This document shows, piece by piece, positions 9,433-52,368 of a stretch of 64,000 nt of DNA (position 1 is its first letter; every line of letters starts with the position of its first letter). Source of the DNA: Candidatus Aminicenantes bacterium (GTDB lineage: Bacteria; Acidobacteriota; Aminicenantia; UBA2199); NCBI GenBank assembly GCA_963822075.1, contig CAWGGP010000009.1, positions 72,507 through 136,506 of the forward strand. The letters run 5' to 3'. A program made the position numbers and the translations under genes. Below the pieces are notes generated by a model, which saw nothing but the letters and a program-made list of their open reading frames with translations, was not told where the DNA came from and ran no database searches.

Positions 9433-9445
9433 AGACAAGAAGCTC

Positions 9446-17845: not shown

Positions 17846-17856
17846 ACCCGGTGATG

Positions 17857-17885
17857 ATTATAACATTCAACCAGAAAAGTGTCAA
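17857..17885 (-). promoter_or_regulatory. consensus sigma70-type promoter for tRNA-Asn
   Basis: The reverse strand shows TTGACA (17885-17880), exactly 17 nt, then TATAAT (17862-17857). This is 11 nt upstream of the tRNA 5' end. Confidence 0.6.
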
Positions 17886-17933
17886 TGTGACTTCTGGAAC
17901 CAGCGAATATTCAGTTGCACGCGGCAGGCTTGT

Positions 17934-19477: not shown

Positions 19478-19485
<8 letters not shown>
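19107..19485 (-). CDS. single-domain response regulator (CheY-like receiver); frameshifted as assembled
   Basis: ORF 19285..19485 ([35 protein letters not shown]) plus ORF 19107..19370 ([62 protein letters not shown]). The junction is near 19335. Confidence 0.8.
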
Positions 19486-22120
<2,635 letters not shown>

Positions 22121-35293: not shown

Positions 35294-37996
35294 TCAAACG
35301 GACCGGGGTGGAAGCTCCTTGACCGCTTCGATCACCGATCCGTCGGCCGACGGCGAGGTGGCGAAACCCAGTCGTTGGAATAGCGCCAGCATGCGTGCGT
35401 TGTCGCTGCCGGTCTGGGCGACGACGCGCTTCAGGCCCCAGTGGCCGGCGATCTCCAGGCAGCACTCGGTCAGGACGCTGCCCACCCCCTTGTTCTGCCA
35501 CTTGTCCCCGACCAGCACGGCGTATTCCACGCTTTCATGGTCGGGATCGGCGACCAGCCGCCCCACGCCCAGCAATTCACGGCGCCCGTCCCGGGTCCGC
35601 TCCGCCACCATGGCGATCTCCCGGTCATAATCGATGAAGCAGTAGCGGATCGCGGCCTGGTGCGATTGCCACTGGAAAAAATGGCGGAAACGGGCATAGA
35701 TGGATTCGCGCGAGCAGCCGGCGAGCAGGTCCATCCACATGGGCTCGTCCTCGGGCCGGATCGGCCGGAGCAGCAGCTCGGTGGCGTCGGGCAGGCGCGC
35801 CGGCCGGATGTATTCCTCGGGATACGGGCGCAGCGCCAGGTGGGCGTAGGGCCGCGAGCCGGCGGCAGGCAGGGGCCCTTCGACGACCAGGCGCGCGTCC
35901 AGGGCGATCACCCGCGAGGGGCTGGCCAGCAAGGGGTTGATGTCCAGCTCGGCGATCTCGGGATAATCGGCGGCGAAATAGGAAAGGCGGATCAGGACTT
36001 CAAGCAGGCGGTCGAGGCCGACCGCCGGCCGGCCGCGGTAGCCGTTGAGCAGCGGCCAGATCTTGAGCGACTCGAGCATGCGCCTGGCCAGGCGCTCGTT
36101 CAGCGGCGGAAAGCCCAGGCTGCGGTCGGCGAACAGCTCGGCGTTGGTGCCGCCCATGCCGGCCAGGACCACGGTGCCGAAGACGGGGTCCTTCTTGATG
36201 CCGAGGATCAGCTCCACCCCATGGGGGTCCTGGACCATCGGCTGCACGGTCACCCCCTCCAGCCTGGCCGCCGGCCTTTTCCGTTGCGCCCGCTGCCATG
36301 ATCGCCGCGAACGCCCGGCGCACCTCGGCCTCGCTGCCCAGGTCGAGGGCCACGCCGCCCACGTCGCTCTTGTGGGTGATGTCCGGGGAGAGGATCTTCA
36401 GGACGACGGGAAAGCCGATCGCGGCCGCCGCTGCGGCGGCGGCTTGCGGGTCGGCGGCCGCCCGCGGCAGGGCGGTGGGAATGCCGTACGCCTCGAGCAG
36501 GCGCTTGGAATCGCCTTCGGAGAGCACCCGTTTTTCGCCCCCCGCCAGCGCCTTGAATTCGGCGCTGCAGTTTCCGGCGGTCGGGAGTGAAGGACAGCGG
36601 GATGTCCATGGGCGTTTCGTAGAGGCTGGCCAGGTTGCGGGAATAGGCCACCAGGGTCATGAAGGCCCGCACCGCCTGCTCGGGGGTGCGGTAGCTGGCG
36701 ATGCCGGCTTCGGCGAGCAGGCGCCTGCCGTCCCCCATGCTGCTCCCGCCGAGCCAGGCGGCCAGGATCGGCTTCGCCGACAGGTCCTTGAGCTGGGCCA
36801 GCGCCTGGGCCATCGCCGTCGGGTTGGTCATGGCCTGGGGAGTGACGATCACCAGGACCGCGTCGGACGCGGAGTCCTGGAGGACGATCTCCACCGCCCT
36901 GGCCAGGCGCTTGGAGCGGGCATCGCCCAGGACGTCGACCGGGTTGCCGTGCGACCAGCAGGGAGGCAGCACCTCGTCCAGGCGCGCCAGCGTCTCCGGC
37001 GCCAGCGCCGCCAGCACTCCATTGGCGGCGATCAGGGCGTCGACGGCCATCACCCCGGGGCCGCCGGCGTTGGTCACGATGGCCAGGCGGGGCCCCGGGG
37101 GATCTTCTGGCGGCCGATCAGCTCGGCGCAGTCGAAGATCTCGCCGATGTCGCAGCACGCGGGCCAGGCCGGCGCGCTGGAACGCGGCGTCATAGATCGC
37201 GTCCTCGGCGGCCAGCGCCCCGGTGTGCGAGGCGGCCACCTGGGCCGACTCCGGGAAGCGGCCGGCCTTGTAGGCCACGATGGGCTTGCCGCGGGCGAAG
37301 GCGCGGGCGGCGGTCATGAACTTGCGCGCCTGGCCGATCGACTCCACGTACATGATGATGGAGCGGGTCTTCTCGTCTTCGCCCAGGTAATCGATCAGGT
37401 CGCCGAAATCCACGTCCAGGGCGTTGCCGATCGAGGCCACGCAGGAAAAGCCGATGTTCTCCTCCATGGCCCAGTCCAGCACCGCGGCGCACAACGCCCC
37501 CGACTGGGAAATGAAGGCGATGTGGCCGCTCTTGGGCAAGGCGCCGGCGAAGCTCATGTTGAGCTGGCGGCCGGGGACGATGACTCCCAGGCAGTTGGGG
37601 CCGAGGATGCGCATGCCGCCGAAGCGCTTCGCCTCCGCCTGGATCTCCTTTTCCAGCGCCAGGCCGGCCGGGCCGGTCTCGCGGAACCCGGCCGACACGA
37701 TGACCACTCCCGGGATGCCGGCTTCGCCGCAGGAGCGCACCAGGGCGGGGACCTGGGCCGCCGGCGCGCAGATCACCCCCACGTCGACGCGGCGCGGCAG
37801 CTTCGCCAGCTCCGGGAAGCAGGGAATGCCCATCACGGCCTCGAAGTCGGGATTGACGGGATAGACCACGCCGCGGAAGCCGCTGCCGACCAGGTTGCTC
37901 AAGACCTTGCCGCCGACGCTTTTCGGGTTGGCGCGTGACCCCGATCAGGGCGATTCGCTGCGGGTTGAAAATGTTCTCAAGACTGTGGATCGCCAT
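35294..37996 (-). CDS. ADP-forming acetyl/acyl-CoA synthetase fused to a GNAT acetyltransferase domain (Pat-like); multiple frameshifts as assembled
   Basis: The N-terminus is MAIHSLENIFNPQ.IALIGV / SRANPKSVGGKVLSNLVGSGFRGVVYPVNP (CoA-binding), followed by the succinyl-CoA-synthetase-like flavodoxin and ATP-grasp parts (ORFs 36250..37902, 36000..36527). The intact C-terminal ORF 35294..36253 ends in a GNAT domain (..YAVLVGDKWQNKGVGSVL..). The indels include a compensating pair at ~37095/37155. Confidence 0.8.
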
Positions 37997-38888
37997 GCCC
38001 CTTTTTCCTTTGCTCGTCCAGCACCCGGCGCATCGCCCGCGTGTGCTCGGGAGTCGTGCCGCAGCAGCCGCCGAGCACCGACACCCCCGCCGCCAGCAAT
38101 TCCCCGCCCTTTGCCGCCATGAACTCCGGCGTCTCGGGATAGTGGACCTTTCCCTGGCGCGATTCGGGCAGGCCGGCGTTGGGCTGGATCACCAGCGGCA
38201 GCGTGCTGGTCTGCTTGAATTCGCGGGCGATCGCGAGCATGTGCTCGCTGCCGTTGCCGCAGTTGGAGCCGACGAGGTCGGCGCCCGCCTTGGCGAGCTC
38301 GCGCAGGCCGCCGCGACCGACACGCCCATGACGGTGAAGTAGCCCCGCGGCGTGGCTCGAAGGTCATGGTGGCCATGACCGGGATGGTGGCGGAGACGCT
38401 GCGCGCGGCCTGGATGGCCAGCCGCGCCTCGGTGATGTCGGTCATGGTCTCGATGCAGACGAGGTCGGCCCCGGCGCCGATCACGGCCCGCATCTGCGCG
38501 CGGAAGCTTGCATCGAGCGTTTCCGCGTCCGTGTCCCCGAAGGGCTTGAGTATCCTGCCGCTGGGGCCGCACGAGGCGGAAACGTAGGCCCGCTCCCCGA
38601 CCGCCCGGCGCACCGCCTCGACCGCGCTCGGTTGATGCGCCGCCTCGCCGGCCAGCCCGTAGTTGGCCAGCTTCAGGGGCGAGGCCGCCGAAGGTGTTGG
38701 TCTGGATGATCTCGGCGCCGGCGTCGAAGTAGAGTCGGGCGATCTCCTCGAGCACCTGCGGCTGGGTCAGGTTGAGCCTCTCCGGAGCCGCGCCCCGGGG
38801 CAAGCCCGCGCGCCATGAGCAGCGTGCCCCAGGCCCCGTCGCCGACCAGGACCTCGCCGCGCCCCACCCGGGCCTTGAAGGATTCCAT
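37977..38888 (-). CDS. homocysteine S-methyltransferase-domain protein (MetH N-terminal/BHMT-like); multiple frameshifts as assembled
   Basis: It begins at ATG 38888 (MESFKARVGRGEVLVGDGAWGTLLMARGL). It continues ..LNLTQPQVLEEIARLYFDAGAEIIQTNTFG.., ..ADLVCIETMTDITEARLAIQAA.., ..LPLVIQPNAGLP.. and the Zn-site motif VLGGCCGTTPEH (ORF 37977..38240). Confidence 0.8.
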
Positions 38889-38889
38889 T

Positions 38890-39525
38890 TTAACCGGCCG
38901 CCGCCAGCTTTTTCACGCTCTCGACCGCCTGGGCGCAATCGTAGCCGTAGGCGTCGGCGCCGATCTCGGCGGCGTAGTCGCCGGAGACGGGGGCGCCGCC
39001 GACGATGGTCTTGATGCGGCCGGCGAGGTCTCCTTCTTGAGCAGGTCGACGACCTCCTTCATCACCGGCATGGTGGTGGTCAGCAGCGCCGACATGCCGA
39101 TGACCCGCGCCTCGCGGCTTTTCGCCGCGGCCACGAACGTCGGCGGCGGCACGTCGTTGCCTAGATCGATCACCTCGAAGCCGGCGCCCTTCAGCATGAT
39201 GGCGACCAGGTTCTTGCCGATGTCGTGCAGGTCGCCCTGGACCGAGCCGAGCACGACCCGGCCGCGGCTGGAGACGCCGCGCTGGCCAGCAGCGGCTTGA
39301 GGAGGTCGAGGCCGGCGTACATGGCCCGGGCGGCCAGCAGCACGTCGGGCAGGAAGATCTCGCGCTCGCGGAATTTTTCGCCCACCACGTTCATGCCGGC
39401 GATCAGGCCGTCGTCCAGGATCGACTGGGGTCGATGCCCTCCGCGAGGGCCTGGCGGGTCAACCGGGCGGCGCTGGCGTCATCGCCCTCTTCGAGGCTCA
39501 GGGCGATCGATTTCAGGATTTCCAT
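38890..39525 (-). CDS. cobalamin-binding corrinoid protein (B12-binding cap + Rossmann domains); frameshifted as assembled
   Basis: ATG 39525 follows GGAGGA. Traceable segments are ..GMNVVGEKFREREIFLPDVLLAARAM.. (cap), the DxHxxG motif VQGDLHDIGKNLV, ..VIGMSALLTTTMP.. and the C-terminus ..GGAPVSGDYAAEIGADAYGYD... The stop lies 2 nt before the next ATG. Confidence 0.8.
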
Positions 39526-39540
39526 GTTTTTCCTCCGTTG

Positions 39541-40244
39541 TTATGCGGACTTGCCCAAGTCCCTTTCCCGGCAGGCCGGGCTCTTGCACAGGGCGCAAAA
39601 TGGGAAGTTTCAGAAACCTGGTGGATCGGCGCCGGGCCGGCGACCAGCACCCCCGAAACCGATTTGAGCGGCGTCATCAGGAAACGTTCGTTCGAGCGTA
39701 CGCCGATCTCCTCCGGCTGCAGGGCCGCGAAAAGCGTTCGCTGGCCGCTGATATGCCAGCCGCAGTAGCCGGGGCTGTATAAAAAAGCCCGAGGGCGGGC
39801 CCCGTTGCCCCGGACTTGGCCCGCCGGTCCTCCGCCCAGGCCTCGGCGACGCGCCCGGCCTGGTCGGCCGCTGGCGAGGCGACGGCGTCGAGGATCGAGC
39901 CCAGGGCGAAATCCACGCCGGCGAACAGGCGCTGGATCTCGGCGCTGATCCCCTCCCCGAGGGTCGAAAACGAAAAGATGCAACTGGTCGGCGCGGGGAA
40001 ATATTTTTTCCAGCGGCGTCTCCGGCTGCGTTCAGCCCGCGGCCGCGAAAATAGGCCGCGAACTCTACCGCGCTGACCGGCCGGCTCAAGGCGCGGGGCT
40101 CTCCGGCGCAGTCGAAAATTTCCAGTGCCCGCTCGCAGCAACGCGGCGGAAGCGCGGGGAAGGCGCGGCGGCCGCTTTTCAGCCCCAGGGCGGCAGCACG
40201 TCGGCGGGGTCGGGCCGCAGCCGAGCCAGCGGGAAATCGATCAT
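39541..40244 (-). CDS. protein resembling the MetH reactivation (AdoMet-binding, Met_synt_B12) domain; frameshifted as assembled
   Basis: Traceable segments are ..FSTLGEGISAEIQRLFAGVDFALGSILDAVAS.. and ..YSPGYCGWHISGQRTLFAALQPEEIGVRSNERFLMTPLKSVSGVLVAGP.., the conserved core of the B12-dependent methionine synthase activation domain. Both ends are uncertain. Confidence 0.6.
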
Positions 40245-40302
40245 GCCTCGACCGGGCGGGCGGGAAGCGCGTCCATGCCGCGGCGCCGCGCTTCTTTGTC
40301 CA

Positions 40303-41713
40303 TCAGCGCGCATAATCCTTCTTGCGCTCGTCGGCGAGGCGCGAGGGCCGCCAGGCGCCGACCAGCCGCTCCACCTCGCGCCGGGCCCGCTGCCCGAGCG
40401 TCAGGCTGCCCTCCTCCCGCCAGCGCGAGAGATTGGCCCGGTCGATGACCGGCCCGGGAAATAAAGCTCATTCTTCAGATGTCGGCGCGTGTGCGGGGAG
40501 ATCAGCAGGTGGCCCTCGCGCAGCAACTCCTCGAATAGCGGCCGGGCGGGGAAGTCCTCGCGCGGCTCGATGCCGCGCGGCAGGCGCAGCGTCATGCCGC
40601 AGATCTCGTCGTCCAGGACCAGCTTCTCCAGGCTCTGGCAGCTCTCGAAATCGAGCATGCCGGGGCCGGAAACGCTGTTGATCCCGGAGAGGGCGGCGAG
40701 CGTGGCCCCCATGCCGGTCTCCAGCCCGGCCTGGGCGTCGAGCGTCTTGGCGTCGCTCAGCGCGATGTAGGCCTGGGTGGGCAGGCCGAGATGCTTGCCG
40801 ATCTCGTTGTAGGCGCAGTCGACCATCATGCGTCTCGATCGCGCCCATGGGCGTGGTCTCGTAGCGGATGTCGAAAATGGCCGGCGAGCCGCCGTAGAGC
40901 ACCGGGGTCCCGGGATGGCTGGCCTGGCTGATGACGACGCCGCTCAATGTTTCCGCCGCGTGCTGCACCAGGGTGCCCACCAGGGTCACCGGGGCCATGA
41001 AGCCGGAGAGCGGCATGGAGATGAATTCGACCGGGATGCCGGCGGCGGCGCAGTCGACCACGTTCTGCGACGTGATCTCGCTCCATTTCAGCGGCGCGGT
41101 CGGGCAGCAGGAAAAGATCGTCAGCGGCCTGGCGCGCAGCTCCTGCTCGCTGCCGCGCACGGCCAGCTGCATGTCGCGCATCACCTGGAAGGACTCGATG
41201 GTGAAGGCGCCGGTGACCACCGGCTTCTCGCCGTAGAGCAGGCTGAAGAAAAGCCGGTAGCTGTCCGAGACGAGGTCGGCCACGTCGGCCGGGATGAAGG
41301 CGGTGCTCTGCGCGGCGATATGGCCGCAGGCCGGTAAGGAGCTGGACGTAGCGGACATAGTCCGCGGTATCGGGCTTGCGGATCTGCTGGGTCCGGTGGT
41401 CGAGGATGTGCAGGGCCGCCGAGCCCGGGGTGAAATGGACATTGGCGCCGGAGAAATCGTGGGTCTCCTCGCCCATCACGTTAAAAAGCTTGAACGAGTG
41501 CGGAACCGTCGCCAGAGCGCGGTCCAGCACCGGGCCGGGAAACCAGGCGTGGCTTTTTCCCAGGTCCACCCGGGCGCCGAAGTCGCCCAGGAGCTTAAGG
41601 ACGCGCGGGTTCTGCACCTTGGTCCCCAGGTGACCCAGGATATCCCGGGCTTCGCCGACGATCCGTTCGAGCAGGTCCGCGCTCAGGAGTTTGAATTGCG
41701 GTCTCAAGGCCAT
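40303..41713 (-). CDS. MttB-superfamily (trimethylamine methyltransferase-like, non-pyrrolysine) methyltransferase; frameshifted as assembled
   Basis: ATG 41713 follows GGAGG. The sequence reads MALRPQFKLLSADLLERIVGEARDILGHLGTKVQNPRVLKLLGDFGARVD.., ..IFSCCPTAPLKWSEITSQNVVDCAAAGIPVEFISMPLSGFMAPVTL.., ..PMGAIET | MMVDCAYNEIGKHLGLPTQAYIALSDAKTLDAQAGLE... The frames are joined at ~41335 and ~40830, and again near 40460. No in-frame TAG is needed in the frames I traced. Confidence 0.8.
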
Positions 41714-41841
41714 GGCTTCGCCTCCTTTTTGATCCGATGAACTTCCCACGGCGCCCATTGGGGGTCAACCGCCGATGCCGGGGAAAAATTATATGGGAAG
41801 CCGCGGCGGTTGTCAATCGCACCCGTCAACCCCGCCACGGA

Positions 41842-41869
41842 TTGACATATTGAAAATTTGGCATAAAAT
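41842..41869 (+). promoter_or_regulatory. sigma70-type promoter candidate for the sigma54-activator gene
   Basis: TTGACA (41842-41847), a 16-nt spacer, then TAAAAT (41864-41869). The ATG at 41914 lies 45 nt downstream and is preceded by GGAG. Confidence 0.5.
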
Positions 41870-41913
41870 TTATCCGGCCGGGCGCGTCGGCGCGAGCAGG
41901 CCAGGGATAGGAG

Positions 41914-43281
41914 ATGAGCGAAGACAATAAAAAACCGGGGGGGCGACCGGGGCTGAATGTGCTGGTCGTCGACGATGAAACGAACATCCGCAAGACCATC
42001 TCCCTCTGCCTCGAGATCGAAGGCTGCCTGGTCCGGGCGGTCAGCAATTTCGCTGACGCCTTGAGCGAGATCAAGCAGAACGTTTTCGACGTGGCCTTTC
42101 TGGACCTGCGCCTGGGGACCCAGAACGGGTTGGACCTGATCCCCTACCTTCAATTTCACTCGCCGCGGGCCAAGATCGTCATCATCACCGCCTACGCATC
42201 CATCGACTCGGCCATCGAGGCGATCCGCAAGGGGGCGACCGATTATATCCCCAAGCCCTTTACGCCCGCCCAGATCAAGGTGGTCATCGGCAAGATCAGG
42301 GAGATCGGCGACATGCAGCGGCAGATCGAAGACCTCAAATTCAGCTTGACCGTCAGCGTGCCGGAGATCGATTTCTCTTCAAAGAATGCGGCCATGCAAA
42401 AGGTCTTCGCCGTCGCCCGGGAAGCCGCCGCCTCCAGCGCGACCATTCTGCTCAAGGGGGAAAGCGGCAGCGGCAAATCCATCCTGGCCAAAGCCATCCA
42501 TGACTGGAGCCCGAGGTCGGGCAAGCCGTTCTTGAGCGTCTCCTGCCCATCGCTTTCCGCCGAGCTCCTGGAAAGCGAACTCTTCGGCCACGCCAGGGGA
42601 TCGTTCACCGGCGCGCTCAGGGACTTCCCGGGACGGATCTCGCTGGCACAGGAAGGCACGCTGTTTTTGGATGAGATCGGCGACCTGCCCCTGTCGATCC
42701 AGCCCAAGCTCCTGCGCTTCATCCAGGATAAAAAATACGAGCGGCTGGGGGAAAATATAACCCGGAACGCCGATGTGCGGATCATCGCGGCATCCAACCT
42801 CGACCTGGGAAAAGCGGTCGCCGAGGGAAGGTTTCGCGAGGACCTTTACTATCGTTTGAACGTCGTGGAGATCGAGATCCCGCCGTTGCGGGAAAGAAAG
42901 GAAGATATCGCAGCCAGCGCCGACAACATGCTGCTTTTTTTCGGTCGCAATAACCACAGGGCATACAAGGGGTTCAGCCCCGAGGCATTGGCGGCGCTGA
43001 ACAACTATTCCTGGCCGGGAAACCTGCGCGAACTCCGCAACACCATAGAACGCATCGCCATTTTCTGCAAGACGGAAATCGTCGGCCAGGAATGCCTTCC
43101 CGATAAGATCAGCGGCAGCGAGGGCATGCCTTGCCTGGGAGATGCGGTCAACCTTGACAAGATCGAGGAGATCCACATTCGCCGCGTCCTGGCCAGCGCG
43201 GCCTCCATGCAGCAGGCCGCCGAAACTCTGGGCATCGACTCGGCCACCCTGTGGCGCAAAAGGAAAAAGTACGGCATTTGA
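41914..43281 (+). CDS. sigma54-dependent response regulator (NtrC family: REC + AAA+ + Fis-type HTH)
   Basis: 455 aa: the REC domain (VLVVDDE..AFLDLRL..PKPF), Walker A GESGSGKS, the sigma54-contact loop GSFTGA, ..RFREDLYYRLNV.., and the C-terminal HTH ..AAETLGIDSATLWRKRKKYGI. Confidence 0.9.
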   Translation: MSEDNKKPGGRPGLNVLVVDDETNIRKTISLCLEIEGCLVRAVSNFADALSEIKQNVFDVAFLDLRLGTQNGLDLIPYLQFHSPRAKIVIITAYASIDSAIEAIRKGATDYIPKPFTPAQIKVVIGKIREIGDMQRQIEDLKFSLTVSVPEIDFSSKNAAMQKVFAVAREAAASSATILLKGESGSGKSILAKAIHDWSPRSGKPFLSVSCPSLSAELLESELFGHARGSFTGALRDFPGRISLAQEGTLFLDEIGDLPLSIQPKLLRFIQDKKYERLGENITRNADVRIIAASNLDLGKAVAEGRFREDLYYRLNVVEIEIPPLRERKEDIAASADNMLLFFGRNNHRAYKGFSPEALAALNNYSWPGNLRELRNTIERIAIFCKTEIVGQECLPDKISGSEGMPCLGDAVNLDKIEEIHIRRVLASAASMQQAAETLGIDSATLWRKRKKYGI

Positions 43282-43307
43282 GCCGCCCGCATGGCTGAAG
43301 GATCGTC

Positions 43308-43351
43308 TTGCAAAATGCAATGCGGAAAGGAGCCAAGTTTGCATAATTCAA
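43308..43351 (+). promoter_or_regulatory. two TTGCA-N3/4-TGCAA-type palindromes (candidate enhancer/UAS sites)
   Basis: TTGCAAAATGCAA (43308-43320, perfect 5-bp arms) and TTGCATAATTCAA (43339-43351, 4/5). They lie about 90 and 60 bp upstream of the -24 element. Confidence 0.3.
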
Positions 43352-43404
43352 TCCGGGAAACAAGAAAAAGCCTGAAAACCCCAATCATAGAGCCACTCCC
43401 ACTT

Positions 43405-43420
43405 TGGCAAGATTCATGCT
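43405..43420 (+). promoter_or_regulatory. sigma54 (-24/-12) promoter candidate in front of the kinase-kdp genes
   Basis: TGGCAAG-attc-ATGCT compares with the consensus TGGCACG-N4-TTGCW. GG is at 43406-43407 and GC at 43418-43419, which is the correct spacing. GGAG (43432-43435) and ATG 43442 follow. Confidence 0.55.
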
Positions 43421-43441
43421 TTGTATTTTGTGGAGTCGAGC

Positions 43442-45277
43442 ATGAATTTCACTTTGAGACAAAAAATATTCGTTGTGTTCGCCATGCTTTTGCTGATCGC
43501 GGCCCTGATCTCCCTGCAGAGCATCCGGCGCTTCAACCAGCTGGGCCGATCAATCGACGTGATCCTGAAGGAAAACTATCGCAGCGTCATCGCCTGCCAG
43601 CAGATGAAGGAAGCCCTGGAACGGATGGACAGCGGGCTGCTTTTCATTCTCTCGGGCTTCGCCAAGGAAGGGATCGGCCAGATCGCAGCCAACCAAGGAC
43701 GTTTCCAGGAGGCCCTGGGAACGGAATTGCACAACCTGACCCTGCCCGAGGAATCGGCCCGGGCTTTTGAATTGCGATCCCTTTTCGGACTTTATCGCCG
43801 CGGGGTCGAGGATTTCCTGAAAAGCCCTGCGCAAGACTCTTCACGGGTCTATTTTGAGCGACTGTTCCCACTTTTCAAGGAAATCAAGGGCAAGGCCGAA
43901 TCCATCCTGCAGCTGAACCAAAACAACATGAATGCGGCCAATGACCGCGCCAGGCGCAAGGCGGCCCAGGCCCGCCGCGACATGTATCTATTCCTGGTCT
44001 TCTCCGCTTGCATCGCCCTGCTGTTCATGGTTTTCAGCAACCATTGGATCCTGAAGCCCATCCAGCGCCTGATCGCCTCCACCCGGGAGATCCGCAAGGG
44101 GAATTTGAACCTGGTGATCCAGGTGGATACCCGAGACGAGATCGGCCAGCTTTCCGAAGCCTTCAATGACATGGTGGCCAGCCTGCGCCTTTTCCGCCAT
44201 TCCGACCAGGCGAAACTCGTGCGCATCCAGAGTTCCACGCAGGAGGCGTTCAAAAACCTGCCGACGGCCATCGCCATCGTCGCCGCCGACGGCGTGATCG
44301 AGCTCGCCACGGCGTCGGCGCGCAGCGATTTCGGGCTGGCGCCCAATACCTCGATCGAGCAGTCACCTTATCCCTGGCTGGCGAATATCCAGCGCCGGAT
44401 CTTGAAAAATCCCGCCGGGCCCGCCCTCGAGAATAAACATGAAATCATCCAGAAATTCAGCTCCAACCAGGAGCGATTCTACGAGCTGCGGGTCATCCCC
44501 ATCTTCGCTGACAAAAAAGAGTTCAGCGGCTCGATCATCATCCTGGAGGACGTCACCCAGTTGCTGCAGAACGATGAGATCAAGAAGGACCTGTTTTCCA
44601 CGATCTCGCACCAATTGAAAACACCCCTGACCTCCATCCGCATGGCGCTGCACCTGCTGCTCGAGGAAAATGTCGGCAGCGTGAACGAAAAGCAGGCCGA
44701 TCTCCTCGTCTCGGCGCGCGACGAGAGCGACCGGCTCAATGCCATCATCGAGGACCTCCTCGATATCCGGCGCTTGGAAGGGGGAAGCGTCAGGCTGGAA
44801 CTGGCCGCGGTTTCACCCTACCAGCTGGCGCGGGACGCCGCCGGCCCGTTTTCCCGCCAGGCCCGGGAAAAGGGCATCCGCCTGGAGATCGACCTGCCGG
44901 CCGACTTGCCCGACGTACGCGCCGACCGTGCACGCATATTGTACGTGTTCGCCAACCTGATCGCCAATGCCATCAAGTACTCCCCGGTCGGCGGCGTGGT
45001 GCGGCTGACGGCAAAAATGGAAGGGGACAAGATCCTGTTCTCGATCGCGGACAACGGCCGCGGCATTCCCCAGCAATACCAAAAACGGATCTTCGAGAAG
45101 TTCTTCAGGGTGCCGGGGCAGAATGCGGACGCCGGGGTCGGCTTGGGACTGAGCATCGCCAAGGAGATCGTCACGGCCCATGGGGGCCAGATCACGTTCG
45201 CGAGCGTCGAAGGCCAGGGCGCGACGTTCACCTTCAGCCTGGGACCAGGGGAGATCCCGGCAAAAGGAGGTTCATGA
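43442..45277 (+). CDS. sensor histidine kinase (N-terminal four-helix-bundle sensor between two TMs, HAMP, HisKA, HATPase_c)
   Basis: This is ORF 43421..45277. It begins MNFTLRQKIFVVFAMLLLIAALISL. It has a HAMP domain (..IRKGNLNLVIQVDTRDEIGQLSEAFNDM..), the H-box FSTISHQLKTPLTSI, and ..IADNGRGIP..GVGLGLSIAKE... ATG 43442 is preferred because TTG 43421 abuts the -12 promoter element (43418-43420) and would lie upstream of the predicted TSS (~43431). Confidence 0.85.
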   Translation: MNFTLRQKIFVVFAMLLLIAALISLQSIRRFNQLGRSIDVILKENYRSVIACQQMKEALERMDSGLLFILSGFAKEGIGQIAANQGRFQEALGTELHNLTLPEESARAFELRSLFGLYRRGVEDFLKSPAQDSSRVYFERLFPLFKEIKGKAESILQLNQNNMNAANDRARRKAAQARRDMYLFLVFSACIALLFMVFSNHWILKPIQRLIASTREIRKGNLNLVIQVDTRDEIGQLSEAFNDMVASLRLFRHSDQAKLVRIQSSTQEAFKNLPTAIAIVAADGVIELATASARSDFGLAPNTSIEQSPYPWLANIQRRILKNPAGPALENKHEIIQKFSSNQERFYELRVIPIFADKKEFSGSIIILEDVTQLLQNDEIKKDLFSTISHQLKTPLTSIRMALHLLLEENVGSVNEKQADLLVSARDESDRLNAIIEDLLDIRRLEGGSVRLELAAVSPYQLARDAAGPFSRQAREKGIRLEIDLPADLPDVRADRARILYVFANLIANAIKYSPVGGVVRLTAKMEGDKILFSIADNGRGIPQQYQKRIFEKFFRVPGQNADAGVGLGLSIAKEIVTAHGGQITFASVEGQGATFTFSLGPGEIPAKGGS

Positions 45278-45366
45278 TGCCGGACGTGATCCATGTCTTT
45301 TTGATGGCGGGATTCCTGTTCCTCTGCCTGCGCTTGGGAAAATTCCTTGAGAAGGTCGCGAAATGA
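45274..45366 (+). CDS. 30-codon hydrophobic peptide ORF between the kinase gene and kdpF (unassigned)
   Basis: It is below the ORF-track size cut-off. AAGGAGG (45264-45270) precedes ATGATG at 45274. My translation is MMPDVIHVFLMAGFLFLCLRLGKFLEKVAK. The start overlaps the kinase stop (ATGA) and the stop overlaps the kdpF start (ATGATG). Confidence 0.4.
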   Translation: MMPDVIHVFLMAGFLFLCLRLGKFLEKVAK

Positions 45367-45446
45367 TGGAAATCATCACCGGCATCGTCGCCCTGGCATT
45401 GATCGTCTACCTTTTCTTTTCCATAATCAAGCCGGAGAAATTTTAA
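45363..45446 (+). CDS. kdpF: K+-transporting ATPase subunit F
   Basis: My translation is MMEIITGIVALALIVYLFFSIIKPEKF (27 aa). It is a single TM helix with the KdpF-like ..Y(L/V)..(A/S)(L/I)(I/L)(K/R)PE.F ending, located 13 nt before kdpA. Confidence 0.75.
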   Translation: MMEIITGIVALALIVYLFFSIIKPEKF

Positions 45447-45459
45447 ACAAGGGGAACCC

Positions 45460-47190
45460 ATGGAAACAGCCAGCTGGATCCAACTGCTTTTGTTCGTCGG
45501 CCTGCTCCTGTTGCTGACCCGGCCGCTGGGCGCCTACCTTTATCGGGTCCTGGAGTCCAGGCAAAAAACGTTTTTTTCGCCTGTTATAGGCGGCTGCGAA
45601 AAATGGCTGCTCAAGGCCCTTGGCCGGGGAAGCGAAAAAGAGCAGAGCTGGAAGCAATACGGGGCGGCGCTGGCTTGTTTCAGCCTGGCCGGCATGCTGC
45701 TGACCTATTTCATCCTGCGCCTGCAGCACTTCCTGCCTTTGAATCCCCAGCATCTTCGCCGGCTTGATCCGTCCCTGGCCTTCAACACCGCGGCCAGCTT
45801 CGCCAGCAACACCAACTGGCAGAATTATGCCGGCGAAAGCACGATGTCCCATTTTTCGCAGATGGTCGGGCTGACGTTTCAGAATTTCGTCTCGGCCGCC
45901 GCCGGGATCGCGGTCGCCGCCGCCCTGGTGCGGGGGATCGTCAGGAAAACCGCCCGCACGATCGGCAATTTCTGGGTCGACCTCGTCCGCGTCACCCTGC
46001 ACGTCCTTTTGCCCGTTGTCGTTCCTCCTGGCTCTCTTTTTCATCTCCCAGGGCGTGATCCAGAATTTCCGGCCGGATGCCAGCGCGTCCTGCCTGGAAA
46101 CATCCGCGAGCCGGGGGCGTGTCCAGCGCATCCCCCAGGGGCCCGTTGCCTCCCAGGAGGCGATCAAGGTCCTGGGCACCAACGGCGGGGGCTTTTTCAA
46201 CGCCAATTCGGCCCACCCTTTCGAAAACCCGACCCCGTTGAGCAATTTTGTCCAGATGCTGGCCATCCTCGCTGATCCCCTCCGCCTTGACCCGCTACCT
46301 GGGCCTGATGGCCGGGAACAAGAAGCACGGCTGGGCGGTCTGGAGCGCCATGGCCCTCCTTTTCATGGCCAGCCTGCTGGTCTGCTGGAGAGCCGAAAGC
46401 GGGGGGAATCCCCGGGTGCAAGCCCTGGCCGCGGTTGCGGGCGGCAACATGGAAGGCAAGGAGGTCCGCTTCGGGGTTTTCAATTCGGCCTTGTACGCCA
46501 CGGTCACGACCTCGGCCTCCTGCGGCGCCGTCAATGCCATGCATGACTCGTTCACCCCGCTGGGGGGGCTGATGCCCATGCTCAACATCCAGCTCGGCGA
46601 GGTCGTATTCGGCGGCGTCGGATCGGGCCTTTACGGCATGCTGGTCTTCGTCATCCTGGCCGTGTTCATCGCCGGCCTGATGGTCGGCCGCACCCCGGAA
46701 TACCTCGGCAAGAAGATCGAGGCCGCCGAAGTCAAGCTCTGCGCTTTCTATGTCCTGGTCTCGGCCATCATCATCCTCGCTCCGGCCGCCTGGGCGGCGG
46801 TCGGCCGCTGGGGGGCGGCGGCGCTGGGCAACCATGGCCCGCACGGCTTGAGCGAGATCCTCTACGCCTTCTCCTCGACCGCCGGCAACAACGGCAGCGC
46901 GTTTGCCGGCTTCGCGGCCGCCTCGACCCTGGCCAACATCCTGCTCGGCCTGGTCATGCTGGCCGGCCGTTTTCTCCTTTTCGTCCCGGTCCTGGCCCTG
47001 GCCGGGAACCTGGCCGCGAAAAAAGTCGATCCCGGCCGGCAGCGGCAGTTTCCCGGTCCACGGCTTGACGTTCATCGCGCTGCTGGTGGCCACGATCATC
47101 ATCGTCGGCCTGCTGACGTTTTTTCCCGCCCTGGCCTTGGGACCGGTCGCCGAACAATTCATCATGGCCCGCTCCACCAAGCTGTTTTAG
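45460..47190 (+). CDS. kdpA: K+-transporting ATPase subunit A; frameshifted as assembled
   Basis: The fragments are ORFs 45460..46275, 46016..46546, 46248..47579 and 46903..47190. Conserved segments include ..[21 protein letters not shown].., ..[37 protein letters not shown].., ..[12 protein letters not shown].., ..[23 protein letters not shown]... There are at least three indels. Confidence 0.9.
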
Positions 47191-47201
47191 GAGGCTTGCC
47201 A

Positions 47202-49223
47202 ATGAGAAATGCCGCGACGTCCATTTTCCAGAAAGACATTCTCAAGCAGGCCGCCTTGGATGCGCTCAAGAAACTCGATCCCCGTTCCCTCGCCAGGAAC
47301 CCGGTCATGTTCGTTACCGAGTGCTGCGCGTTGCTGACCACGGTCGCCATTTTTCAAAAAAACCGGGGCGAACCGCTGGGATTCACGATTCAGATCTCGT
47401 TTTGGCTGTGGTTCACCGTGCTGTTCGCCAATTTCGCCGAGGCCGTCGCCGAAGGCCGCGGCAAAGCCCAGGCCAACTCCCTGCGCCAGACAAGGTCCCA
47501 TACCCTGGCCAATCGCCTGCAAGCGGCCAAGACCTGCCGTCTCGCGCCGGCGGAAAGCCTGCGAAAAACGACCTGGTAGCGGTCAGCGCCGGCGAGACCA
47601 TCCCGGCGGACGGCGAAGTGGTCTCGGGCATCGCCACCGTCGACGAATCGGCGATCACCGGGGAATCGGCGCCGGTCATCCGCGAATCCGGGGGCGACCG
47701 CAGCGCCGTGACCGGCGGCACCCGCGTGCTTTCCGACCGGATCATCGTCCGCGTCACCGCCGATCCCGGCGAAAGCTTCCTGGACCGCATGATCGGCCTG
47801 ATCGAGGGGGCGAACCGCCAGAAGACCCCGAACGAGATCGCCCTGACCATCCTGTTGTCCGCGCTCAGCGTGATTTTCCTGGTGGCGATCTGCACCCTGA
47901 AATTTTTCGGGATCTACTCCGGGGTGTCGTTCAGCGTCACCGTGCTGGTGTCGCTGCTGGTCTGTCTCCTGCCGACGACCATCGGCGGCCTGCTGAGCGC
48001 CATCGGCATCGCCGGCATCGACCGCCTGGTGCAGAAGAACGTCCTGGCCATGAGCGGCCGGGCGGTGGAGGCGGCGGGCGACATCGACGTGCTCCTGCTG
48101 GACAAGACCGGCACCATCACCCTGGGCGACCGCCAGGCGGTGCGCTTCATCCCGGCGCCGGGGGTCACCCTGGAAACCCTGGCCGACCTCGCCCAGTTGG
48201 CGTCCTTGGCCGACGAGACCCCGGAAGGGCGGAGCATCGTCATCCTGGCCAAAAAGCACGGCTTGCGCGGCCGCTCGATCGCGGAGATCCCCGACGCCAG
48301 GTTCGTCTCCTTTTCGGCGCAGACGCGGATGAGCGGCATCGACATCGGCCGGCACCGGTTCCGCAAGGGCTCGCCCGACGCCATCGCGGCATTCATCGCC
48401 GGCGCGTTCCCGGAAGAGATGAAGCGGGTCATCGAAGAGATCTCGCCGAGCGGGCGGCACGGCGCTGGCCGTCGCCGAGGAAACGGAGGCCCTGGGCGTC
48501 ATCCATCTCAAGGATATCGTCAAGGGCGGGCTCAAGGACCGTTTCACCCGGCTGCGGGCCATGGGCATCCGCACCGTCATGATCACCGGCGACAACCGGC
48601 TCACCGCGGCCACGATCGCCCGGGAAGCGGGCGTGGACGATTTCCTGGCCGAAGCCCGCCCGGAAGACAAGATGGCGCTGATCCGCAAGGAGCAGCGGAA
48701 CGGCTACCTGGTGGCCATGACCGGCGACGGCACCAACGATGCGCCGGCGCTGGCCCAGGCGGACGTCGGGGTGGCGATGAACACGGGCACCCAGGCCGCC
48801 AAGGAGGCGGGCAACATGGTCGACCTGGACTCCAACCCGACCAAGCTCATTGAGATCATCGAGACCGGCAAGCAGATGCTGATGACGCGGGGCGCCCTGA
48901 CCACCTTCAGCATCGCCAACGACATCGCGAAATATTTCGCCATCCTGCCGGCCATGCTCATCGCCCTTTTTCCGGAGATCGCCCCGCTGAACGTCATGAA
49001 GCTGGGCTCGCCCCTCAGCGCCATTCTCAGCGCCGTGGTGTTCAACGCCCTGATCATCTTCCTGCTCATTCCCCTGGCCCTCAAGGGCGTCAAATTCAAG
49101 CCCATGAAGGCCATGGCCCTGCTGCGGCGCAATCTCGCGGTCTACGGGCTGGGCGGCCTCGCCGTTCCTTTCATCGGCATCAAGGCCATCGATATCGCGG
49201 TCAATTTTTTCCACCTTGCCTGA
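47202..49223 (+). CDS. kdpB: K+-transporting P-type ATPase subunit B; frameshifted as assembled
   Basis: ATG 47202 gives [38 protein letters not shown]. It also has ..[13 protein letters not shown].., the phosphorylation motif [12 protein letters not shown], ..MITGDN.. and ..[20 protein letters not shown]... Indels lie near 47560 and 48450. Confidence 0.92.
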
Positions 49224-49236
49224 GGAGAAGACGAAA

Positions 49237-49818
49237 ATGAAGACGCTGCTGAAAGAATGCGGCCGGGCGGTCCTGGCCGTCATCCTGCTGTCGTTCCTGC
49301 TCGGCGGGATCTATCCGCTGGCGGTCTGGGGCCTCGGCCAATTGCTTTTTCCGCAAAAAGCCAACGGTTCCCTCCTGCATGGGGAAAAGGGAATCATCGG
49401 CTCCGTCCTGATCGCCCAGCCTTTCAGCTCACCCGCCTATTTCCATCCCCGCCCCTCGGCGGTCGACTACTCATGCTCCCGCGCCGCTTCAGGCGGCAGC
49501 AACCTCGGCCCCTTGTCCGGAACGCTCCATGAACAGGAGAGGGCCCGGATATTGAATTACCGGGAGTTGAACGGGTTGCCCGCCGCCTTCCCGATCGCGG
49601 CGGATGCGATCAGCGCTTCCGCCAGCGGCCTGGACCCCCATATCAGCCCCGCCGACGCGAGCGCCCAGGCGGCCAGGGTCGCGCGGGCCAGGGGAATGGC
49701 AGAGGCGCAGGTCAGGCGCTTGATCCGGCGCCACCTGGAGGGCAGGCAACTGGGGATTTTCGGTGAAGAAAGGGTCAACGTGCTGCTGCTGAACCTGGCA
49801 TTGGACGGCCGGAAGTGA
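49237..49818 (+). CDS. kdpC: K+-transporting ATPase subunit C
   Basis: This is ORF 49216..49818. ATG 49237 follows GAGGAG and gives MKTLLKECGRAVLAVILLSFLLGGIYPLAVWGLGQLLFPQKANGSL... It also has ..SGGSNLGP.. and ..ASASGLDPHISP... Confidence 0.9.
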   Translation: MKTLLKECGRAVLAVILLSFLLGGIYPLAVWGLGQLLFPQKANGSLLHGEKGIIGSVLIAQPFSSPAYFHPRPSAVDYSCSRAASGGSNLGPLSGTLHEQERARILNYRELNGLPAAFPIAADAISASASGLDPHISPADASAQAARVARARGMAEAQVRRLIRRHLEGRQLGIFGEERVNVLLLNLALDGRK

Positions 49819-49837
49819 TACGCTGAGCATCGCGAAC

Positions 49838-51029
49838 ATGGACCAGGAAAAAGCGAACCAATTTCTGCATATGATCCAGCGCTCCGCCCGCGGCGGCTGA
49901 AGATCTACCTCGGCTATTGCGCCGGGGTCGGGAAGACCTACCGCATGCTCCAGGAAGGGCACGCGCTCAAGGCCGACGGGATCGACGTGGTGGTCGGCTA
50001 CGTCGAAACCCATGGCCGCGCCGACATCGCCAAGCTCCTGGAAGGGCTGGAGATCATTCCCCGGATGAGCCGGGAATACAAGGGAATGCAAGTCGAGGAA
50101 ATGGACGTGGACGCCGTGCTGGCCAGGAAAGCCGCCGTGGCGCTGATCGACGAGCTCGCCCACAACAATGTTCCGGAAAGCCGCAACGGCAAGCGCTACC
50201 AGGACGTCCAGGAAATCCTCGCCGCCGGCATCCACGTGATCACGACCTTGAACGTCCAGCACCTGGAAAGCCTCTATGACACGGTCGAAAAGCTCGTCAG
50301 GCGTCAAAGTGCGGGAAAGGCTTCCCGACTCGGTGCTCAGCCGAGGCCGACCAGATCGTCAATGTCGACCTGACTCCCGAGGACCTGAGAAAAAGGCTCC
50401 AGGAAGGCAAGATATACAAGGAGGACAAGATCCAGACCGCCTTGGAGAACTTTTTTTCCCAGGCCAATCTGGAAAACCTCAGGGAACTGACGCTGCGGGA
50501 GCTGGCCGCCCAGATCGACACCCACCGCAAGGAGCTGGATAACGAGGGCAGCACGGTCATGCCCGATCAGATCATGGTATGCCTGAGTTCGCGCGGCCCG
50601 AACAGCGATTTCTTGCTCCGCTATGCCTCGCGCTTCGCCGGCCGTTTGAACAAGAACTGGTATGCGCTGTATGTCCAGACGGCGGCGGAGGATCCCCTGC
50701 AGATCGATATCCAGACGCAGAACGCCCTGGCCCGCACCTTGACCCTGGCCAAGCAGCTGGGAGCCATCGTTTTCACCTACAAGGGCGAGGACCTGGCCAG
50801 CACGATCATCCGCTTTGCCCGGGAATACCACATCGGGCACATCATCATCGGGTCTCCCAGCCGGTTCTCCTTCTTCCAAAAAGTACGGTTCAAAAAGACC
50901 CTTGCGGAACGGTTGATCCAGGAAGCCGGGGGGATCAATATCGTCGTGGTGGATACCCATCCCCGGCACTCCGCCCCGCAAGGAGCGGAGCCGGAGACCG
51001 CGGCGCGCCGTCAGAAAAGATCGGCTTGA
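49838..51029 (+). CDS. kdpD: KdpD N-terminal sensor module only (KdpD P-loop domain + Usp domain; no TM or kinase part); frameshifted as assembled
   Basis: ATG 49838 is followed by ..RGRLKIYLGYCAGVGKTYRMLQEGHALKADGIDVVVGYVETHGR.., ..LDELAHNNVPESRNGKRYQDVQEILAAGIHVITTLNVQHLESL.. and ..DLTPEDLRKRLQEGKIY... The Usp-like part is ..IMVCLSSRGPNSDFLLRYASRFAGRLNKNWYALYVQT... The ORF stops at 51029 with no membrane or HisKA region following. Confidence 0.85.
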
Positions 51030-51479
51030 GCGACTTCCTCGCAGCGAACCATATCCTGATCTGGAAGAATGCGGCGATGAAAGAGGAAGTCCTGCGCGGA
51101 CCTGGCCCGGGCCGCGTATAGCGCCGAGCAGGATTATCAGGATATTTTCTCCCGTTTGCTGCAGAGGGAAAAAGAGAGCTCGACATTTTTCAACGAAGGA
51201 GTGGCGTTCCCGCACCTGCGGCTGGACGATGATTCCCCGCCCACCATCGCCCTGGGGATCATCCCCAAGGGCATCGCCGACATGGCCACGCTTGAGCCGA
51301 TCCGCCTGGTCTTTCTCATCGTGACTTCGCTGAGCCAGAGCGATGTCCAGGCAAAACTGCTGGCCGCCGCCAGCCGGATCGCCAGCAACAAACATCTGGT
51401 GGACATCCTGCTCGCCGCGAAAAACCCCGAAAAGGTCATCCGTGAAATAAGCCAGTGGACGGCCGCGAATTATTCGTGA
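51026..51479 (+). CDS. PTS EIIA type-2 (EIIA-Ntr/PtsN-like) domain protein; frameshifted as assembled
   Basis: TTG 51026 gives LSDFLAANHILIWKNAAMKEEVLR.. (the end of ORF 50579..51121). ORF 51156..51479 then gives ..LLQREKESSTFFNEGVAFPHLRLDDDSPPTIALGI..IRLVFLIV... GVAFPH is the EIIA-2 active-site His context. The junction is near 51095. Confidence 0.7.
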
Positions 51480-51599
51480 TGCCCGCCGGCCATGGGAAAA
51501 CGCGCAATGAACAATGATGTTTCAAGGGCATTGATTTTGGCTGGGGTTGCGGCTATGATCGCAGCAAGGGAAAATTTGGACTTGGCTTCAGGAGGGAAC

Positions 51600-52368
51600 A
51601 TGGTCGTGAAGAAAAAACTTTCGTTGGGATTGGGCTTTTTGTTTTTCATCATTTTTGTCCTGACCATCTTCTGTTCTTACTACATCGGGAAATTATCCCA
51701 GGAAGCCGGCAATATCCTGAAGGATAATTACAATTCCCTGGTTTATTCGAGGAATATGACTTCCGCGCTCGAGAATCTGCGGACTGCCGTCAGCAGCATT
51801 ATCTTCAACCAGACGGAGAACCGGAAAACGACCGATTATTTCTGGCAGCTTTTCGAAAAGGACAAGGCCGAGTTTGAAAAAAACCTGGCAGCGGAAGATC
51901 AAGAACATAACGGAGATCCATGAAAGCGTATATGTGGAGGCGATCCAAAAGGACTATGCCATATTTTTGCGACTCTGCACGCCAATCAAAACCGGGGCAG
52001 GGAACGCCGCCATGTACTTCAACGAATTCCAGCCCGCTTTCGAGCAGCTCAAGCGATCCATCGACAGCATCCATGACATCAATATGCAGGCGGTGGTGCG
52101 CAAAAGCCGCAAAACCCGCCAGGATGCGCAGAAGACGATCGACGCCATGGCCGGCATCGGCGTGTTTTGCCTGATCCTGGCGTTCGCTTATTTCTGGTAT
52201 TTTCCCTTGTATATTTCCAATTCGATCTCCTACCTGGCGGAAAAAATGAGGCAACTTTTGAAAAAATTGGGAATCACCATGGATAGCAAGGCCGAAGACG
52301 AATTCCATGTCATTTTGCAGTCGATCAACCTGATCGAAAACAAATTCAGCGGGAAAAACGAAACGTAA
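51600..52368 (+). CDS. membrane sensor protein: four-helix-bundle periplasmic domain + TM + HAMP-like tail, no output domain; frameshifted as assembled
   Basis: ATG 51600 follows GGAGGG and gives MVVKKKLSLGLGFLFFIIFVLTIFCSYYIGKLSQEAGNILKDNYNSLVYSRNMTSALE... This resembles the N-terminus of the kinase at 43442 (..LGRSIDVILKENYRSVIACQQMKEALE..). It continues in ORF 51874..52368 (second TM, ISNSISYLAEKMRQL..). The junction is near 51880-51900. Confidence 0.6.

Follow-up and report, generated by a model that had tools for sequence, protein, structure and literature searches.

The kdp potassium-pump locus of a Candidatus Aminicenantes bacterium (assembly GCA_963822075.1, contig CAWGGP010000009.1, positions 72,507 to 136,506) was analyzed within a stretch of 64,000 nucleotides, which is called the window here. 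The locus lies at 41.8-52.4 kb of the window on the plus strand, and all features of it given below are on this strand. Downstream of kdpFABC, we found one gene (49838..51479) for a protein in which the N-terminal module of KdpD (KdpD-N, the Walker A/B domain) is joined to a Usp domain and to an EIIA domain of the phosphotransferase system (PTS), resembling the Ntr type. In the first-pass annotation of this DNA, the same region had been read as two genes, one for KdpD-N (49838-51029) and one for a separate EIIA partner (51026-51479). The two are a single gene broken by sequence errors, and EIIA is covalently fused to KdpD-N and Usp. We consider it reasonably probable that the locus is a conserved kdp regulon module, in which sigma-54-dependent transcription is combined with a post-translational brake that takes a PTS-type input. 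The fusion is what remains new here: it is widespread and conserved, has a cultured representative and is apparently undescribed. No description of a covalent KdpD-EIIA fusion was found in the open-access literature.

Domains were called by Pfam on translations of the window, and broken genes were entered as stitched sequences. The fusion gene gave a KdpD match (1e-93), a weak Usp match and a PTS_EIIA_2 match over the full length (3e-20). The C-terminus of KdpD-N and the body of EIIA are in the same phase in the window. The apparent stop, TGA 51027, is located inside an 83-nucleotide out-of-frame patch that runs from a -1 indel at ~51014 to a +1 indel at ~51097. When one A was added at ~51014, the sequence RRQKKIGLSDFL was restored, in agreement with the family consensus GKKIG-SDFL. 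A database search with the EIIA-like sequence gave only 15 relatives. In two of these, on the short-read contigs L004 (JGI) and L005 (MEGAHIT), a single frame leads from the C-terminus of KdpD/Usp into EIIA.

The EIIA alignment was then used for a genome scan (one genome per GTDB species), which yielded 40 loci, and 35 of these hold both domains. In 31 of the 35 two-domain loci, KdpD-N, Usp and EIIA are encoded together by one uninterrupted open reading frame (ORF) of 540-575 amino acids; three of the four loci without a single ORF are MFD assemblies. In a database search with the fusion from a clean short-read relative (L006), PF02702 and PF00359 were both present in 116 of the 120 top clusters, and a search seeded with the Desulfomonile sequence likewise gave both domains in the top relatives. 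The cultured Desulfomonile tiedjei DSM 6799, whose genome is finished, encodes a fusion of 551 amino acids (I4C4T7 / WP_014809723.1; KdpD 19-228, PTS_EIIA_2 407-548). Its locus (L046, CP003360.1, 2237893-2259548) consists of a sigma-54 response regulator (RR), a histidine kinase (HK), kdpF, kdpA, kdpB, kdpC and the fusion gene. Thus, because both halves share one phase, the two short-read contigs read through, nearly all two-domain loci hold a single ORF and the D. tiedjei protein is continuous, we conclude that KdpD-N and EIIA are one gene. The first-pass annotation had regarded fusion of these frames to other domains, after sequence correction, as counting against its idea. A fusion was indeed found; it strengthens the link between KdpD and EIIA and does not refute it.

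Fusion genes were found in Aminicenantes, other Acidobacteriota, Desulfomonile, Syntrophaceae, Omnitrophota, Hydrogenedentes and Chrysiogenales. Wherever the upstream DNA suffices, the fusion gene is accompanied by an RR-HK pair (21 loci and D. tiedjei). Public annotation gives members of the fusion family either of two names, 'PTS sugar transporter subunit IIA' or 'sensor histidine kinase KdpD'.

The match of the KdpD homolog to the KdpD model, which has 895 positions, is confined to positions 11-378, and the protein has no transmitter domain. With NF038185, the model for short non-kinase KdpD, I4C4T7 scored 349.6 bits and did not reach the curated cut-off of 550. We prepared two alignments of fusion proteins, one of 29 sequences (the stitched window sequence and 28 relatives) and a second (A3) of 36 sequences. 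The Walker A motif G-x5-GKT (GYCAGVGKT) and the Walker B motif D-E (LIDELAH) are invariant in both. Foldseek resolved three modules in the protein, which matched the KdpD N-terminal region (2r8r), the c-di-AMP-bound Usp domain of KdpD (7ji4, TM-score 0.87) and PtsN structures. In the AlphaFold model, the EIIA domain is confident (pLDDT 82-95) and follows a disordered linker of ~20 residues. For the whole fusion, the predicted TM-score was 0.33 with a shallow alignment, and no inter-domain contacts could be read from the model.

The EIIA domain is Ntr-like and probably phosphorylatable, as judged from the following comparisons. The best sequence match in the PDB was E. coli PtsN (1a6j), in which the phospho-histidine is aligned. 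The best NCBIfam model was also PtsN, with scores below the cut-offs of both models (42.5 bits for TIGR01419, cut-off 138.7; 38.4 bits for NF008145, cut-off 221). The top fold matches were the PtsN structures 1a6j, 2a0j, 3urr and 4gqx (TM-score ~0.8), ahead of sugar-type EIIAs. RE-ESSTFFNEGVAFPH, including the histidine, is invariant in the aligned fusion proteins, and the context of the histidine is G-[IV]-A-x-P-H; the GVAFPH active-site context reported in the first-pass annotation is present in the window. Free-standing EIIA-Ntr (PtsN) has ~155-165 amino acids, and the genes of PTS(Ntr) usually lie at another site, most often the rpoN operon. In contrast, EIIA here is the C-terminal domain of a protein of ~550 amino acids in a kdp operon.

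Close relatives without EIIA also exist. For example, Desulforhabdus amnigena (protein of 394 amino acids) keeps the order HK-kdpFABC-KdpD/Usp, with a sigma-54 RR nearby. Since the EIIA-less relatives keep the same layout, EIIA is an added input and not the coupling element. In the D. amnigena locus (L047, 11298-15400), a second kinase (612 amino acids), a REC-TPR protein and a sigma-54 regulator are located downstream on the opposite strand. Thus, the regulatory module has been rearranged between lineages.

The gene order and the domain calls of the first-pass annotation for RR, HK, kdpFABC, KdpD and EIIA agreed with Pfam. The locus begins with an NtrC-family sigma-54-dependent RR of 455 amino acids (41914..43281, intact ORF) with the domains Response_reg (3e-25), Sigma54_activat (4e-63), AAA_lid_14 and HTH_8 (8e-08). 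Its sigma-54 interaction loop is GSFTGA, a GAFTGA-type loop whose variant has also been listed for DVU3220, and the orthologs in L006 and L016 are 85-89% identical to it. A putative sigma-70-like promoter, TTGACA-N16-TAAAAT (41842..41869, 11/12 matches in a consensus scan), is located 5' of the RR gene. At 41788-41869, two sigma-70 consensus promoters stand back to back: this one (TTGACA-16-TAAAAT, plus strand), directed at the RR gene, and a perfect TTGACA-17-TATAAT on the minus strand, directed at an MttB-like gene.

The RR gene is followed by a membrane sensor HK of 611 amino acids (43442..45277, intact ORF). Its topology is two transmembrane (TM) segments around a periplasmic helical domain, followed by HAMP, PAS (PAS_4), HisKA and HATPase_c. 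In the first-pass annotation, this protein had been described as a 4HB/HAMP kinase. The kinase assignment and HAMP were confirmed by Pfam, whereas no 4HB match was obtained at E<=0.01 and the PAS domain had been omitted. An HK is kept 5' of kdp in 21 genome-scan loci and in D. tiedjei.

A conserved hydrophobic ORF of 30 codons (45274..45366) lies between HK and kdpF (45363..45446, intact; Potass_KdpF 3.9e-10). The stop of the HK gene overlaps the ATG of this ORF, and its stop in turn overlaps the ATG of kdpF, as expected from the tight packing noted in the first-pass annotation. Since these overlaps leave no intergenic space, there is no room for a promoter between HK and kdpF. ORFs of this type (26-30 codons) occur at the same position across phyla in many loci. 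Two sub-types were recognized, MMPDVIHVFLMAGFLFLCLRLGKFLEKVAK in the window and MDVVYILILLIFFGLSVLYCLAWERI in D. tiedjei (L046, 5398-5478), where it is absent from the called genes. The 30-codon ORF had no match in Pfam or NCBIfam, and no named NCBIfam family reached its cut-off with the RR, the HK or the small ORF. The small hydrophobic ORF may encode an additional small subunit of Kdp or a peptide with a coupling role. A contig that appeared to lack RR and HK, L001, was rejected as a counter-example, as it is a chimeric or rearranged join. At ~3978-4300 of this contig, the truncated 5' end of ftsK (88 amino acids) continues directly into the interior of the small ORF, and RR and HK are thereby lost.

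All four KdpFABC subunits are encoded together in the window. The stitched kdpA (45460..47187) matched KdpA over the full profile length (1e-232), kdpB (47202..49223) gave E1-E2_ATPase and Hydrolase, and the intact kdpC (49237..49818) gave KdpC (6e-64). The kdpB translation contains the catalytic DKTGT motif and AITGESAPV, the TGES loop holding the regulatory serine; TGES is also kept in KdpB of D. tiedjei. Not all coordinates quoted in the first-pass annotation are those of uninterrupted ORFs, and the breaks had not been mentioned there. The only intact ORFs in the operon are RR, HK, the small ORF, kdpF and kdpC, and at least 11 single-base indels break the remaining genes. They were mapped by placing the proteins of L006 on the window and by alignment to four cleaner relatives. 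Three frame changes are needed in kdpA (+1 at ~46012-46015, ~46271 and ~47027), two in kdpB (-1 at ~47563 in an A-run, +1 at ~48445), five in the KdpD-N/EIIA region (-1 at ~49893, +1 at ~50298-50302, +1 at ~50339, -1 at ~51014 in an A-run, +1 at ~51097-51100) and at least one in the last gene (+1 at ~51899).

This last gene (51600..52368) encodes an output-less membrane protein that consists of a TM segment, a helical domain, a second TM segment and a short tail. It is a paralog of the periplasmic sensor region of HK; BLASTP against the N-terminus of HK showed 24% identity, co-linear, with E 1e-7. The earlier 4HB/HAMP call is weak for this protein: the 4HB_MCP_1 score was 24 bits (cut-off 27) and no HAMP was detected by Pfam. 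Homologs 3' of the fusion gene were found only in the Aminicenantes-type loci L006, L007, L009 and L016, and in L020 the homolog lies between RR and HK. The stand-alone paralog may modulate the sensor of the kinase.

The control region of the operon is located between RR and HK. A predicted sigma-54 -24/-12 promoter, TGGCAAGATTCATGC (43405..43419), lies 22 nucleotides 5' of the kinase ATG, at the site proposed in the first-pass annotation. It is the sole exact match to TGGCA-N7-TGC in 64 kb and is conserved in relatives. A pattern scan further detected two predicted upstream activating palindromes, TTGCAAAATGCAA (43308-43320) and TTGCATAATTCAA (43339-43351), which are two of only three TTGCA-N3-TGCAA-type matches in 64 kb and are positioned 55-100 nucleotides upstream of the -24/-12 element, within the RR-HK spacer. 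Paired palindromes together with a -24/-12 element recur just 5' of the kinase gene in Aminicenantes, Acidobacteria and deltaproteobacterial loci. The deltaproteobacterial loci have TGGCGC-N5-TTGC with paired TTGCA-N3-TGCAA, and the control region of D. tiedjei has TTGCAGAATGCAA and TGGCAT-N5-TTGC. No sigma-54 promoter was found directly 5' of kdpF or of RR. As for riboswitch control of kdp, for example by a c-di-AMP riboswitch, Rfam found only two tRNAs and the signal recognition particle (SRP) RNA in the window.

KdpE was reported missing in the first-pass annotation, and this holds at the locus: no OmpR-type regulator is encoded here, in the related loci compared or in the D. tiedjei locus. 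Since the RR possesses Sigma54_activat and the GSFTGA loop, the promoter and palindromes are conserved, and DVU3334 offers a precedent, kdp appears to be wired to a sigma-54 enhancer-binding RR and not to KdpE, and transcription in this organism would be sigma-54 dependent.

The precedent comes from Desulfovibrio vulgaris Hildenborough (DvH). In this bacterium, the sigma-54 RR DVU3334 binds and regulates its own kdpFABC operon, as demonstrated by DAP-chip and electrophoretic mobility shift assay (Rajeev et al. 2011, PMC3333781), and the parts of KdpD are divided between a KdpD+Usp ORF and a separate kinase (PMC3333781). The DVU3334 regulon was likewise listed by Kazakov et al. 2015 (PMC4641369). 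The first-pass annotation had proposed a different K+ circuit for the window. A sigma-54 RR does take the place of KdpE; such a circuit is not new, as it was published for DVU3334 (PMC3333781), and ptsN in a kdp cluster is known from rhizobia. The DVU3334-DVU3339 region resembles the window in that a sigma-54 RR, a separate PAS-type kinase, a KdpD/Usp protein and kdpFABC are gathered in one locus. Validated RR sites are GTTACATTTTGTAAC in DvH and GTTTCATTTTGAAAT 5' of the kinase gene of S. fumaroxidans (PMC3333781). The former has the same palindrome design as TTGCAAAATGCAA of the window, as does the DVU3305 site; the latter is placed 5' of a kinase gene adjoining the RR gene, as in the window. 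The window RR is likened to DVU3334 by layout and binding-site design only. The gene order is kdpFABC, KdpD/Usp, HK and RR in DvH, whereas it is RR, HK, small ORF, kdpFABC and fusion in the window. Furthermore, the DvH protein is described with KdpD and Usp only and no EIIA is mentioned, whereas the window fusion carries EIIA.

In cyanobacteria such as Anabaena, an N-terminal-only KdpD-N/Usp protein is encoded at the end of the kdp operon and has no transmitter domain. To our knowledge, the cyanobacterial protein lacks an EIIA domain, and no sigma-54 regulator is encoded next to it. In E. coli and rhizobia, the free EIIA has ~160 amino acids, and kdp is transcribed via the OmpR-family KdpE at a sigma-70 promoter. 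The canonical KdpD (KdpD-N, Usp, four TM segments, GAF, DHp and CA) with an adjacent KdpE is absent at the window locus. These systems share with the window an Ntr-type EIIA tied to KdpD and potassium homeostasis, and in rhizobia a ptsN paralog is even placed inside the kdp cluster. However, a free EIIA binds full-length membrane KdpD there, whereas in the window EIIA forms one polypeptide with a KdpD-N/Usp that lacks the kinase part. The rhizobial paralog is a second ptsN (ptsN2) located in the kdpDE cluster, and binding of PtsN to KdpD is noted for several proteobacteria (2026 review).

The function of the KdpD-N module has been demonstrated in other bacteria. As an atypical serine kinase, the N-terminal domain of KdpD phosphorylates Ser162 of KdpB and inhibits the pump (Silberberg et al. 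2024, PMC11018627). Short KdpD/Usp proteins, found mostly in species without KdpE-type control, perform only KdpB phosphorylation, and in Deinococcus this is controlled by c-di-AMP via Usp (PMC11018627). In the KdpD architecture table of the same paper, I4C4T7 is listed as 'KdpD domain, Usp domain', and EIIA is not noted (Silberberg et al. 2024, PMC11018627). DgKdpD of Deinococcus geothermalis resembles the window protein: it is a soluble KdpD-N with Usp, has no TM, GAF or DHp-CA and is encoded with kdpFABC. Walker A G-x5-GKT, Walker B and the serine of KdpB TGES are conserved. In contrast to DgKdpD, the window protein adds a C-terminal EIIA(Ntr-like) domain, and its locus has a dedicated sigma-54 two-component system.

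Based on these comparisons, we propose how the module could work. The RR would be made from its own sigma-70-type promoter and phosphorylated by the adjacent membrane kinase. The phosphorylated RR would bind the two TTGCA-N3-TGCAA palindromes and activate sigma-54 RNA polymerase at the -24/-12 promoter just 5' of the kinase gene. One transcript would then cover the kinase, the 30-codon membrane peptide, kdpFABC, the fusion and possibly the sensor-domain paralog, so that the kinase would be positively autoregulated together with the pump; K+ is the presumed signal. The fusion would be one soluble protein, in which a flexible linker of ~20 residues connects KdpD-N and Usp to EIIA(Ntr-like). In analogy to E. 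coli KdpD and to the short KdpD/Usp protein of Deinococcus, KdpD-N would act as an atypical serine kinase that phosphorylates the TGES serine of KdpB and turns the pump off. The EIIA histidine, phosphorylated by a PTS(Ntr)-type relay, would set the activity of this brake, alongside or instead of nucleotide sensing by Usp.

By this comparison, the fusion most likely brakes the pump post-translationally and receives a phospho-histidine input of the PTS type, and is not a sensor feeding the kinase. We favor the brake because Walker A and Walker B are invariant, KdpB keeps ITGES, a KdpD-N domain is known to phosphorylate KdpB (PMC11018627) and EIIA is an add-on. The proposal of the first-pass annotation, in which KdpD-N plus EIIA feeds a separate kinase, appears less likely for the same reason, since the KdpD-N serine kinase acts on KdpB (PMC11018627) and the EIIA-less relatives keep the arrangement. 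As a further step, the EIIA(Ntr)-like domain might directly gate the serine kinase of KdpD-N, and the state of the PTS(Ntr) relay (carbon, nitrogen, energy) would thereby switch KdpFABC. This step is put forward tentatively, as possible rather than probable.

Several observations weigh against the module as proposed. The KdpD-N part of the AlphaFold model is of low confidence. The leader between the transcription start predicted from the -24/-12 element and the kinase ATG is only ~11 nucleotides. Neither the window nor the DNA up to 10 kb from the related loci gave a signature of HPr/NPr, EI, rpoN or diadenylate cyclase in a motif search, a result that is uninformative; therefore, the phosphodonor of the EIIA histidine and sigma-54 itself are assumed. 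The RR and HK genes (3.2 kb) have no indel, where ~5 would be expected at the local rate (Poisson P ~0.006). In addition, PtsN acts on the histidine-kinase part of KdpD (the transmitter or GAF domain) in E. coli and rhizobia.

This action of PtsN, which in E. coli, P. putida and rhizobia binds KdpD and alters its output as a kinase, could mean that EIIA docks the fusion onto the separate kinase, and that a KdpD-like sensor is thus formed from two polypeptides and acts mainly on transcription. Such docking is in essence the proposal of the first-pass annotation, carried over to the fusion. The flexible linker would suit docking in trans, and the constant company of the RR-HK pair described above would fit as well. 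However, EIIA is not needed for coupling, as the EIIA-less relatives and DvH keep the HK, kdp and KdpD/Usp parts with a sigma-54 RR. Moreover, the kinase of the window has PAS and not the GAF domain bound by rhizobial PtsN, and KdpB phosphorylation is the sole demonstrated activity of a stand-alone KdpD/Usp protein. We therefore regard docking as unlikely; it and the brake are not mutually exclusive. A second question is whether the EIIA-like domain belongs to a phosphorelay at all. It might be a ligand-binding, dimerisation or autoinhibitory module whose histidine is structural or serves in binding, given that it scores far below the PtsN family cut-offs (42.5 vs 138.7 bits for TIGR01419), forms its own small clade with the unusually rigid motif ESSTFFNEGVAFPH, and has no PTS genes near any locus in the motif search. 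Set against this, the Arg-Glu...His active-site pattern common to PtsN and EIIA-Mtl is invariant and the fold fits PtsN. The absence of nearby PTS genes says little, as PTS(Ntr) genes are usually encoded elsewhere. A role outside the relay thus seems quite improbable to us.

The frameshifts could also be real, in which case the kdp operon apart from RR and HK would be a decaying pseudogene cluster. The distribution of the indels, with none in RR and HK and at least 11 in kdpA, kdpB, the fusion and the last gene, would be unlikely at a uniform error rate. Nevertheless, the indels are private to the window when set against the four cleaner relatives. Four related long-read contigs each carry private indels of one nucleotide, at different sites. 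L001-L003, which come from one ENA project (ERZ250395xx) and have the same gene order, each possess their own private 1-nucleotide insertions elsewhere. Of these, L002 is broken throughout, including RR and HK. L003, a contig of an 'MFD...' metagenome-assembled genome (MAG), is as patchy as the window; its RR, HK and KdpA are intact and the remainder is broken. MFD MAGs of Candidatus Aminicenantes are among the closest reference genomes, and we take them to be long-read assemblies. When the private indels were removed, substitutions followed the order third > first > second codon position throughout the broken genes (kdpB vs L001: 0.209, 0.079 and 0.050 for third, first and second). Therefore, purifying selection has acted on these genes. 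The damage extends to unrelated genes on the flanks. At 37.9-41.8 kb, it affects an MttB-like methyltransferase, a corrinoid protein and a methyltransferase; in addition, a Pat-like acetyltransferase gene is split at 36253, a DAO oxidoreductase is partial, and the SAICAR synthetase gene runs into that of a Colicin_V protein. The indels affect single bases and are isolated. No common motif or homopolymer context, as in a methylation-type systematic error, was found at their sites; two of the four deletions (~47563 and ~51014) are in A-runs. Since the private indels differ between relatives, purifying selection is visible and flanking genes are also broken, the frameshifts are assembly artefacts and not marks of pseudogenes, and decay is very improbable. 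We tentatively attribute the indel-free RR and HK to uneven assembly quality.

Several features were noted elsewhere in the window. Indel damage spans many unrelated genes at ~35000-62000. On the minus strand at 37900-41760, translations alone identified an MttB-family methyltransferase, a B12/corrinoid-binding protein and a homocysteine-S-methyltransferase-like protein, all frameshifted; this gene content suggests demethylation of methylated amines or glycine betaine. After a tRNA-Asn (17770-17845, minus strand), the G+C content falls to 0.52-0.54 (~0.62 elsewhere); this stretch (17770-22000) may be an element integrated at the tRNA. Further upstream, Rfam detected the SRP RNA (9197-9295) and a tRNA-Ser (9345-9433).

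In practical terms, the fusion family is inconsistently annotated, and the published survey gives the D. tiedjei protein as KdpD/Usp only. The window also serves as a warning: where a long-read metagenome assembly is rich in indels, reading frames should be checked before novelty is claimed at the gene level. If the EIIA domain does gate the serine kinase, it would represent a third input class for KdpD, beside K+ via TM/GAF in E. coli and c-di-AMP via Usp in Deinococcus. The fusion would then also be natural 'Rosetta-stone' evidence that the long-known link between PtsN and KdpD originally concerned the N-terminal kinase module. Two open questions are touched by this, namely how the serine-kinase brake is controlled in short KdpDs without K+-sensing domains, and what lies behind the tie of EIIA-Ntr to KdpD in so many bacteria. 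A natural and widespread fusion of the brake with EIIA would offer a direct handle on both, and it is testable in the cultured D. tiedjei.

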